From a virus (Duplodnaviria; Heunggongvirae; Uroviricota; Caudoviricetes), in the IMG/VR virus record IMGVR_UViG_2548876698_000001, positions 1-6,824 of that record: 6,824 nt of DNA. The stretch is one strand, 5' to 3'. Within the stretch, counting starts at the first letter, position 1, and the number at the start of each line of letters is the position of its first letter. This document shows, piece after piece, positions 3,001 through 6,824 of this stretch. Made by a program: the position numbers.

Positions 3001-6000
3001 TGCAAAAATGCTCGAAACCGATCAGGCGTGGGAAGTGTTCGAAAAACTGGAAGACTGCTATTTCAGCCAGGGCGAGAAAAATACTGGCAAACAAGAGAAG
3101 AAGCTCAACGGGCTTTCCGCAAAAGAAACAGACAGCCTTGTATGGCTGTGGGATTATGCCAACCGCTCACAGGCATTGTTCCGTGAGTTGTATCCCGCAT
3201 TAAAACTGATTCAGTCTGGCTATTCCGGCATATGCCACGACTACGGCTATGAGTTCTCGTATATCATCGGGAGGGCGAGGGGCGTTTTAATTAATCACAC
3301 GCGGGATATAGATATTTATGAGCCTGACGGGCCGACGAACCTTCTGGCATGGGAAAGGCTTAAGAACAAAGAGTTGCCGCCTTCACTGCATCGCTACTGA
3401 CAATTGACAACTTAACAAACCCAGCTTCGGCTGGGTTTTTTATTGCTGAATTTTCAATGTGAGAGGACATGACAATGAATGAGCTGATAAATAGCAATGC
3501 CATCAAAATGACAAGCATTGAAATCGCTGAGTTGGTGGGAAGCCAACACGGTAATGTCAGAATATCAATAGAACGTCTGGCAAAGCGTGGGGTGATTCAA
3601 CTTCCTTCAATGCAAAAAGTTGAAAATAAACAAACAATTAGCCCTGACAAATTCACAAGCGTGTATATATTCGAAGGCGAACAAGGTAAGCGAGACAGCA
3701 TTATTGTCGTCGCTCAGTTGTCGCCGGAATTCACCGCTCGCCTTGTTGACCGCTGGCGAGAACTCGAAGGGGCAACCGCGAAAATACCACAAACCTTTTC
3801 TGAGGCATTGCGCCTTGCGGCCGACCTTGAAGACCAGAAGGCTGAACTGGAGAAACAGCTTGCTCTCGCAGCACCTAAAGTTGAGTTTGCCGATCGAGTT
3901 GGCGAGGCCAGCGGAATTTTGATTGGAAACTTTGCAAAGGTTGTTGGTATTGGTCCAAACAAACTGTTTGCGTGGATGCGCGATCACAAAATCCTTATTG
4001 CTTCAGGTGCCCGGCGCAATGTGCCAATGCAGGAATATATGGATCGCGGCTATTTCACAGTGAAAGAAACAGCGGTCAATACAAATCACGGAATACAGAT
4101 ATCGTTCACCACAAAAATCACCGGGCGTGGTCAACAGTGGCTGACAAGAAAGCTGCTAGATAACGGAATGCTTAAAGTAACAGGGGAGGCTGCTTAATGG
4201 CTAAACCAGCGCGAAGGAAATGCAAAATCTGTAAGGAATGGTTTCACCCGGCATTCTCAAATCAGTGGTGGTGCAGCCCGGAACACGGAACTAAATTAGC
4301 ACTCGAACGACGAAATAAAGAACGCGAAAAGGCGGAAAAAACAGCAGAGAAGAAACGACGACGAGAGGAGCAGAAACAGAAAGATAAAATTAAGATTCGA
4401 AAACTCGCCTTAAAGCCCCGCAGTTACTGGATTAAACAAGCCCAACAAGCCGTAAACGCCTTCATCAGAGAAAGAGACCGCGACTTACCATGTATCTCGT
4501 GCGGAACGCTCACGTCTGCTCAGTGGGATGCCGGACATTACCGGACAACTGCTGCGGCACCTCAACTCCGATTTGATGAACGCAATATTCACAAGCAATG
4601 CGTGGTGTGCAACCAGCACAAAAGCGGAAATCTCGTTCCGTATCGCGTCGAACTGATTAATCGCATCGGGCAGGAAGCAGTAGACGAAATCGAATCAAAC
4701 CATAACCGCCATCGCTGGACTGTCGAAGAGTGCAGGGCCATCAAGGCGAAGTATCAGCAGAAACTTAAAGACCTGCGAAACAGCAGAAGTGAGGCCGCAT
4801 GACGTTCACAGTAAAAACCATTCCTGACATGCTCGTTGAGGCATATGAAAATCAGACCGAGGTAGCCAGAATACTGAACTGTAGTCGCAACACGGTCAGA
4901 AAATACACTGGCGATAAAGAAGGAAAAAGACACGCTATTGTCAACGGTGTTCTTATGGTTCATCGCGGATGGGGTAAAGATACTGATGCGTGATATCCGG
5001 CAGGTTCTTGAGCGCTGGGGTGCATGGGCGGCAAATAACTATGAGGATGTTACATGGTCGCCCATTGCTGCCGGATTTAAGGGACTGATCCCCGAAAAAG
5101 TAAAATCACGTCCACAGTGTTGTGACGATGACGCGATGATTATATGCGGGTGTATGGCTCGCCTTAACAGGAACAACAGCGATCTGCATGACTTGCTGGT
5201 TGATTATTACGTGTTGGGGGAGACGTTCATGGCGCTGGCACGGAAACATGGGTGCTCTGACACCTGCATAGGTAAACGCCTTCACAAAGCGGAGGGGATT
5301 GTTGAAGGCATGCTGATGATGCTGGGAGTGAGGCTTGAGATGGATCGGTATGTTGAGCGTGAATTGCCGGGAGGGAGAACCTCTGTATTTTATCAGCGAA
5401 AAAATAGTTTACGATCGTAAAAATCTGCATATCATGATAAGAGTGGTTACATTGCCACGCTGCTTAACCCGCCGATGCGCGGTTTTTTTTGTACCCAGAA
5501 TCCTGTGAGCTATACGGAAAGTACACAGAAAGGAAGGTGCGACCACAATTAATAACAAAATCTTAAAAATTGCACATGGCACTATTAGTTTTCTAAATAT
5601 TGTGTATTTTTTGTATTGCAGGATGACCCTGTAACGAAGTTTGCGTAACAGCATTTTGCTCTACGAGTTTGCCAGCCTCCCCCAGTGGCTGGCTTTTTTA
5701 TGTCCGTAGCGTCAAAGCAGCAATGTCGCTGGGGCGTCGTGCAATTGGCGTTGAGCTGGAGACTGAACGTTTTGAGCAGACGGTCAGGGAAGTACAGGAT
5801 TTAGTCAGTCAGAACGGATGATATTGCAGAATTAACCGGGTATCAGGTACGCCCCGAAAATTTTAAATGTCTCACAATTCAGACGGTTGACAGTTGTCTG
5901 GTTTGCGGGGAGTTTGTTAAAAGAAACTGGCATGGTGAATCCCCCTGAGCGGAGGGGCATATCAGCGCAGGTGTTTCTACTCTATCCTTTCTGTGCGGGT

Positions 6001-6824
6001 TCAGGTGCTGATACTGAACTCACCGGGAGGCACCCGGCACCATGCATATGGTTAACAGACACGTAGCGAAGCCCCTCTCCGGAGGGGCTTTTTTTATGGG
6101 CAAAAAAAGCCCGCGCTGGGAGACGCGGGCGGCAAGGAATAAACAACAAAACGTGAAGTAATATTTCAGCTGGCGAATAATACCCCATGGTAATCACTCT
6201 GCGCAACTGCGCGGCCTTTTTCGAATTGCGGGCTGTAAGTCTCCCTTCTGCCATTGTCCTGTAACTTCCGGACTTCAGCCCGCTCTTTATCTGATTCAGT
6301 ACACTATCCCGGCCGGGAGGATTCATGACATTTAAACATTACGATGTGGTCAGGGCGGCATCGCCGTCAGACCTTGCTGATGCACTTGCGCAAAAAATTC
6401 GTGAAGGATGGCAACCATACGGTGGGCCGTTTTCTTCGTATACGGATGATGGCGCAGCACTTATTCAGGCGATTGTCGCAGAAGGTGATGTGAGCACACC
6501 TGTTGTGGTGAAGCCGACAGGTGGAGAAGGTGCAGTAATCAGTGCCACCAGCGACCCGGAGTATTACTTTGTTGTGGTTCTGGCAGGGCAGTCAAACGGC
6601 ATGTCGTATGGTGAAGGTCTTCCGCTGCCGGAGACATATGACCGTCCGGAGCCGCGTATTAAGCAACTGGCGCGTCGCAGTACGGTGACACCGGGTGGTG
6701 CAGCATGCAGATATAACGACATCATTCCGGCGGACCATTGTCTGCATGATGTGCAGGACATGAGCCGTCTTAACCATCCGAAAGCGGACCTGTCAAAGGG
6801 GCAGTACGGAACCGTGGGGCAGGG

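Follow-up and report, generated by a model that had tools for sequence, protein, structure and literature searches.

A probable STnc100/PasD family small RNA gene with a covariation-supported pseudoknot in the late-gene leader of a lambdoid prophage

We looked at a stretch of 6,824 nucleotides (nt) of IMG/VR virus record IMGVR_UViG_2548876698_000001 (positions 1 to 6,824, hereafter the window), which corresponds to the replication-to-late-gene region of a lambdoid prophage. The window encodes replication protein P, Dam, two antirepressor-like genes, NinG and the antiterminator Q (4938-5420), and the N-terminus of nanS-p (DUF1737) begins at 6325. Between Q and nanS-p lie, in this order, two terminators, a methylase remnant and the element studied here, which is very probably a prophage small regulatory RNA gene of the STnc100/PasD family. 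The element is located in the late-gene leader of a lambdoid prophage that resembles Shiga toxin (Stx) phages and lacks stx. Indeed, no stx gene was found within the window by Pfam scan and genome comparison, and in the closest genomes, which are Stx1 and Stx2 prophages, stx fills the corresponding gap.

The original prediction, made from the sequence alone, had proposed for this region a compact multi-helix RNA ending at a strong terminator, and had named an Rfam search and a comparison for covariation as ways to check it. Both were positive. The Rfam scan matched window positions 5901-6101 (+) to STnc100 (RF02076) with 148.1 bits, well above the gathering score of 47 (E = 7e-34), and the match covered positions 1-206 of the 206 of the model. 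The consensus helices are present and compatible with the covariation, and compensatory changes were found in P1, P3 and a long-range stem. Folding also set this region apart: the z-score was -3.8 over 5901-6097 and -4.3 over 5930-6097, and none of 200 shuffles was equally stable. At E values up to 10, the Rfam scan listed neither a riboswitch nor a ribozyme family over the core. A tRNA-like reading of the cloverleaf-like core was also considered and found no support, ARAGORN giving no tRNA or tmRNA.

Northern blots and Hfq-based assays have revealed relatives of the element (PMC5331693, PMC8550237, PMC7873438), and the family is described as Hfq-associated prophage small RNAs located between Q or stx and nanS-p or the lysis genes. 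In strain EDL933, 11 STnc100 copies are transcribed, one of them Northern-positive, and some carry ribosome footprints (PMC5331693). In enteropathogenic Escherichia coli (EPEC), PasD1 and PasD2 are abundant small RNAs in RIL-seq (ligation and sequencing of interacting RNAs), and Northern blots confirmed them (PMC8550237). The copy of Stx2 phages lies just downstream of stx2B, overlaps the Hfq-binding EcOnc27/sRNA103 (PMC12711010, PMC12370729, PMC7873438), and has sequence variants statistically linked to clinical outcome (PMC12711010). A common ancestor of PasD and STnc100 was proposed in a 2026 preprint (bioRxiv 10.64898/2026.05.13.724894). Since the element belongs to a curated family that is experimentally detected in relatives, it is real but not new. 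What is new here is a modest detail: a covariation-supported pseudoknot in the conserved core, which is joined to interchangeable 3' tails. The features of the locus are as follows.

5894-5923 (+): probable sigma-70 promoter, by homology, with TTGTCT as -35 (5894-5899) and TTAAAA (5917-5922)
5930-6096 (+): small RNA of the STnc100/PasD family, predicted length about 167 nt, from the Rfam match, PasD homology (5' end) and the intrinsic terminator
5930-5937 (GCAUGGUG) with 6038-6045 (CACCAUGC) (+): closing helix P1, from the minimum-free-energy fold, Rfam consensus and covariation
5942-5946 (CCCCU) with 5953-5957 (AGGGG) (+): hairpin P2, loop GAGCGG, from the Rfam consensus and fold
5960-5966 (UAUCAGC) with 6007-6013 (GCUGAUA, in the P3 loop) (+): pseudoknot helix, from covariation
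5967-5996 (+): variable insert between the pseudoknot 5' arm and P3, differing in length and sequence among homologues
5997-6004 (GGGUUCAG) with 6014-6021 (CUGAACUC) (+): hairpin P3, 9-nt loop, from covariation
6023-6027 (CCGGG) with 6033-6037 (CCCGG) (+): hairpin P4, loop AGGCA, abutting the 3' strand of P1, from the Rfam consensus and fold
6046-6067 (+): single-stranded 3' tail, candidate seed region by analogy with PasD
6068-6096 (+): intrinsic terminator, 10-pair stem 6068-6077 with 6082-6091, loop UCCG and U-run, from the terminator scan

Family membership, helices and terminator are thus shown, while a role as a trans-acting, Hfq-associated regulator is suggested by analogy with the relatives.

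The motifs named by the original prediction were all found in place. Its hairpins 5942-5957 and 6023-6037 correspond to the family helices P2 and P4, both in the Rfam consensus and in the fold, and its long-range stem TATCAGC (5960-5966) / GCTGATA (6007-6013) proved to be real, strongly covarying, and a pseudoknot, since its 3' arm is the loop of P3, so that it crosses this hairpin. The helix list was nevertheless incomplete, P1 and P3 having been missed. To study these helices, relatives were gathered from IMG/VR with four anchored patterns and completed with phage records and EPEC strain E2348/69. A scan of genome contigs with GAACTCACNNNNNAGGCANNNNNCACCATG gave three matches only, in metagenome-assembled genomes of Actinomycetota and Burkholderiales, which were taken as chance; as this was the sole scan of genome contigs, the sampled diversity is confined to viral and E. 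coli collections. Matches to CATGGTGAATCCDCC were mostly due to chance, the useful ones being the PasD type and a few variants, and three further E. coli matches contributed no additional sequence classes.

Covariation was measured on a curated, N-padded alignment of 48 distinct cores (A2), because a plain MAFFT alignment (A1) misregistered the pseudoknot arms. In A2, the whole structure was 93.3% paired versus 82.9% in shuffles (0/500 as high), and P1 to P4 were 93-99% paired in relatives. For the pseudoknot helix, 94.3% of cells were paired versus 55.3% after shuffling (0/500), 118 cells were compensated versus 32 in shuffles, and all seven pairs had changed on both sides. Other registers of this helix reached 23-59% pairing, and the register shifted by one column 27%. 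P3 showed compensatory changes in seven of its eight pairs with 98% of cells paired, and across 82 sequences each of its pairs was realized by three to five standard pair types. Contrarily, P1, P2 and P4 are nearly invariant in the 48 cores: P2 had a single compensatory change, so that covariation says little about it, and P4 had G-U changes only. P1 did covary in a second, more divergent set collected with different anchors, in which its position 3 was A-U in 50 sequences and G-C in 25 (0/2000 shuffles reached the observed pairing).

This second set also contained new complementary classes of pseudoknot arms, namely CCAGCCA/UGGCUGG, CCAGUC/GACUGG, GCCAGGUCG/UGACCUGGC, UGCGGC/GCCGCA and ACUGGC/GCCAGU. 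In an alignment-free test, the longest helix between linker and loop averaged 6.9 bp for cognate loops, 4.6 bp for swapped loops and 4.1 bp for shuffled loops. The element therefore contains two crossing helices, each with compensatory changes of its own. In the window copy, the pseudoknot helix has a duplex energy of -7.8 kcal/mol and can be extended to nine pairs (5960-5968 with 6005-6013). P3 and the pseudoknot helix may be able to form together: with 2 nt of loop on the 5' side and 0 nt on the 3' side, the geometry looks compatible on general grounds. For the variable insert, the fold of the window copy predicts a hairpin (5965-5971 with 5990-5996). Around the helices, the junction and loop nucleotides AAUC, GCGG of the P2 loop, AGGCA and GGGAGG are invariant. 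The text of the 2026 preprint does not use the word pseudoknot, and a five-term full-text literature search gave no description of a pseudoknot in the STnc100/PasD family.

A few relatives are built differently. In L018 (114-300, -) and L008 (match 3335-3350, -), the linker that follows P2 pairs just 5' of a short P3, outside its loop, which makes a nested helix without pseudoknot; L350 (- strand, from about 2947), assigned by eye, is possibly alike. Moreover, PasD and L104 have lost the 3' half of P4 through a 7-nt deletion.

The 5' end of the RNA was placed with the help of PasD. As estimated from RNA-seq coverage, PasD1 and PasD2 start at positions 1060260 and 741157 of NC_011601, both on the G of GCAUGGUG, the base that matches window 5930; hence the window RNA most likely spans positions from about 5930 up to about 6096. 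Upstream of this position, the TTGACT-17-TTAAAA of PasD1 and PasD2 aligns without gaps to TTGTCT and TTAAAA of the window, and TTG(T/C)CT and TTTGTTAAAA are kept across otherwise divergent upstream sequences. Divergent relatives carry a TTGAC or TTGAA -35 and a TAAAT-like -10 ending 6-8 nt before P1. An extended -10 (TG at 5915-5916 followed by TAAAAG at 5918-5923) is an alternative reading in the window. Judging from these sequence comparisons, the small RNA probably has its own constitutive sigma-70 promoter.

The inverted repeat CAGAC (5880-5884) / GTCTG (5896-5900), with which the original prediction opened the RNA, was abandoned as an RNA element. It precedes the likely 5' end by 30-50 nt, overlaps the probable promoter region and occurs at chance frequency: in the window, a perfect 5-bp inverted repeat with a spacer of 8-14 nt turns up about every 100 nt, and the complementarity of CAGAC and GTCTG ranges from one to five of five positions in homologues. 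The TTGACA enclosed by this repeat sits 7 nt upstream of the -35 element. In the same region, some 45-55 nt before P1, one class of upstream sequences shows high conservation of a motif CTCACAATTCAG, found at 5870-5882 (+) in the window; it includes CUCACA, the target motif of the PasD seed.

At the other end, the terminator was recovered independently by the terminator scan, with the stem 6068-6091 followed by the T-run, and this gives the RNA an Hfq-type 3' end (intrinsic terminator and U-run). Its GCCCCUC...GAGGGGC type is the commonest of several in the family. Among relatives, at least 24 classes of tail follow P1, with several types of terminator, and these are reassorted among the classes of core. 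In PasD, the seed sits in the tail just before the terminator, and by analogy 6046-6067 would be the candidate seed here; the PasD seed UGUGAG is absent from this tail.

The original prediction had also pointed to a 9-mer, CGGAGGGGC, shared by the first hairpin and the terminator. The 9-mer is indeed present in P2 (5950-5958) and in the terminator (6080-6088), but it is not a conserved feature of the family: it belongs to the commonest type of terminator and is missing from PasD and other classes. In L181, P2 is altered (GGUG) while the terminator is not. As the 9-mer is confined to one type of terminator and the P2 change of L181 is uncoupled from it, this is not a conserved functional duplication. 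A strand exchange between P2 and the terminator through the shared 9-mer was likewise rejected, since other terminator types do without the motif and L181 changes P2 alone.

We then compared the element with its known relatives. With the STnc100 model, first listed in Salmonella and gammaproteobacterial in distribution, it shares the nested P1 to P4, the terminator and the prophage context; the printed consensus structure differs in beginning some 29 nt before the likely 5' end and in having no pseudoknot. With PasD1 and PasD2 of EPEC E2348/69 (Pearl Mizrahi et al. 2021; Zhu, Shabalina and Storz 2026), it shares the 5' sequence GCAUGGUGAAUCC, P1, P3, the pseudoknot between linker and loop (AAUGAUC with GAUCAUU in PasD), the promoter layout and the published position downstream of Q and upstream of the sialate esterase (nanS-p). 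Unlike in the window copy, P2 is shortened in PasD and P4 is without its 3' half; PasD also carries its own UGUGAG seed and another terminator, and scores only 38-41 bits on the STnc100 model.

The third comparison is with the EcOnc27/sRNA103 + AsxR and EcOnc06 + AgvB dyads of enterohaemorrhagic E. coli prophages (Tree et al. 2014, as cited in PMC7873438 and PMC12711010). Such tail-to-tail dyads of Hfq-binding small RNAs lie between the late promoter and the lysis genes in at least eight Sakai prophages (PMC7873438). As in these dyads, an STnc100-type RNA on the late strand of the window faces a short convergent small-RNA candidate within the interval from late promoter to lysis genes. The differences are that the window lacks stx and that the convergent partner is neither AgvB nor AsxR according to Rfam. 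Moreover, EcOnc27/sRNA103 directly follows stx2B, as in L127, while a methylase remnant lies upstream here. The partner is listed below.

6102-6168 (-): convergent small-RNA candidate, terminator stem 6130-6109 and U-run to 6102, from the terminator scan

This candidate is tail to tail with the STnc100 copy and occupies the position of AgvB or AsxR in other STnc100 loci. Its start is possibly near 6168, going by a promoter-like TTGCGC-18-TATTAT. It resembles an EPEC small-RNA candidate from RIL-seq, E2348C_1409.E2348C_1408.IGR, and had no Rfam match at cut-off (OmrA-B-like, 26 bits). In the Rfam scan at E values up to 10, no part of the window gave a match to AgvB, AsxR or Esr41.

Several observations weigh against the explanation as a small RNA gene of the STnc100/PasD family or against parts of it. 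The window variant is 57% identical to PasD over a global alignment and 66% identical to the Stx2-phage copy, and its tail class is unique in the sample collected. A consensus promoter scan left 5894-5923 unflagged, and the local -10 is weak. In the curated alignment, the register of the pseudoknot 5' arm was fitted sequence by sequence. Finally, in a published supplementary RNA-seq table, PasD1 and PasD2 changed by +0.55 and -0.18 (log2 fold change) in an hfq deletion strain; since their levels barely shift without hfq, the dependence on Hfq may be limited. Overall, we consider a small RNA of this family very probable.

Other explanations were weighed against that of a small regulatory RNA acting in trans. 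The pseudoknotted core itself might be what is selected, as a domain that binds a protein or ligand (decoy or riboswitch-like sensor) or as a nuclease-resistant cap, the tails being secondary. This is compatible with the small RNA reading, and the invariant junction and loop nucleotides, the multi-helix junction fold with its pseudoknot, the joining of one core to at least 24 unrelated tails and the weak effect of hfq on PasD abundance all speak for it. We nevertheless hold it to be unlikely, because the core matches no Rfam riboswitch or ribozyme, has no known partner, and because PasD, after losing the P2 loop and half of P4 (the 3' one), is still an abundant RIL-seq small RNA. It is more improbable still that the element acts in cis on the late (pR') transcript, controlling processing, stability or termination for nanS-p and the lysis genes, with the short RNA as a by-product. 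Its constant location in many lambdoid prophages, with the late promoter on one side and the lysis genes on the other (also PMC7873438), and the fact that late expression requires read-through of the terminator would fit such a role; the conserved promoter-like sequence directly upstream of P1, the discrete and abundant transcripts of relatives in uninduced cells, the free swapping of tails and terminators, and the differing gene contexts of the copies do not.

The processed 3' UTR (untranslated region) and the RNA antitoxin that the original prediction had offered as alternatives are not supported. One could imagine that the small RNA is no primary transcript but is processed out of the upstream gene's 3' UTR (stx or methylase), because the element starts about 75 nt after stx2B in Stx2 phages (PMC12370729) and follows the methylase remnant here. 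However, the upstream gene varies (stx2B, methylase, DUF3927, tRNAs) while the promoter-like motif is kept, and two terminators separate Q from the element in the window, which makes this origin very improbable. We give hardly any credit to a protein-coding element or to the RNA half of a type I toxin-antitoxin pair. An open reading frame (ORF) of 44 codons at 5932-6066 on the plus strand does begin with ATG and lacks a Shine-Dalgarno-like sequence, as had been noted, but it is not the only one: a minus-strand ORF of 114 aa (5982-6326) is annotated as a hypothetical protein by the Prokaryotic Genome Annotation Pipeline in some RefSeq genomes. The presence of both ORFs, the ribosome footprints on some EDL933 copies and the adjoining convergent candidate are what this explanation has in its favour. 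Against it, the length of the plus-strand ORF lies anywhere between 8 and 73 codons in 105 homologues, which have in common only the first residues conserved with the RNA; the minus-strand ORF would cross two terminators; substitutions in the helices are compensatory; and neither ORF has a Pfam match. Neither ORF looks like a gene, and the convergent RNAs are tail to tail without antisense overlap.

Under the preferred reading of a small regulatory RNA, transcription would begin at its own sigma-70 promoter, on the first base of P1 (about 5930), and stop at the terminator (about 6096). The 116 nt at the 5' end would fold into a junction of P1, P2, P3 and P4, locked by the pseudoknot between the linker after P2 and the P3 loop. 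The 3' tail and terminator would form an exchangeable module which, as in PasD, may provide Hfq binding and a seed for host or prophage mRNAs in trans, and the structured core would most plausibly serve stability or a second binding function. In the lysogen, the terminator would also prevent transcription from the small-RNA promoter from entering nanS-p and the lysis genes, while after induction the Q-modified polymerase would pass through it. We further put forward, as a tentative and rather doubtful idea, that the conserved 5' domain of about 116 nt is an autonomous module (a site for a host or phage protein or for a small ligand, or a nuclease-resistant fold) that phages recombine with tails carrying seed and terminator.

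Similar DNA is widespread: of 5426 complete E. coli genomes, 2409 carry it, at up to eight places each, and so do 299 phage records, mainly of Stx2 phages. In L001, an identical copy of the element is followed by esterase, holin and lysozyme genes, and E. coli 2011C-4251 also carries a 100% identical copy. Some viral contigs (L011, L019, L020, L026, L037, L066, L075 and L077) harbor a tandem of two different STnc100 copies, which are spaced by about 468 nt and each have their own promoter-like region and terminator.

Other observations were made in the window. At 5709-5821 (+), only the final 110 nt or so of a DNA-methyltransferase gene are left; as the near-identical locus L001 has the whole gene, a deletion or recombination junction lies near 5709. 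A promoter-like site directly after Q (5408-5435, +) is followed by terminators at about 5468-5491 and at 5671-5701, the second a hairpin, and 5408-5701 is probably pR'/tR'; in Stx phages, StxS arises at this position. A terminator-like hairpin CTGCGCAACTGCGCGG followed by CCTTTTT (6199-6222, +) lies between the small-RNA pair and the start of nanS-p. Farther upstream, Rfam matches above cut-off to c4-a1b1 (2471-2523), isrK (2484-2558) and C4 antisense RNA (2585-2669), all on the plus strand, precede the two antirepressor-like genes, which looks like an immunity RNA module of the P1/P7 type in a lambdoid prophage.

Few small-RNA families are annotated more often in enterobacterial genomes than STnc100, which adjoins Shiga toxin and lysis genes there and appears in a review table with no function listed (PMC9029176). 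For the window, the practical value is that the element can be annotated as a non-coding RNA instead of a hypothetical protein. For the family, the covarying pseudoknot and the modular tails lead to concrete mutants with which the role of the conserved core can be probed. If the core is indeed autonomous, its combination with interchangeable tails would constitute a cassette system generating new regulatory RNAs.

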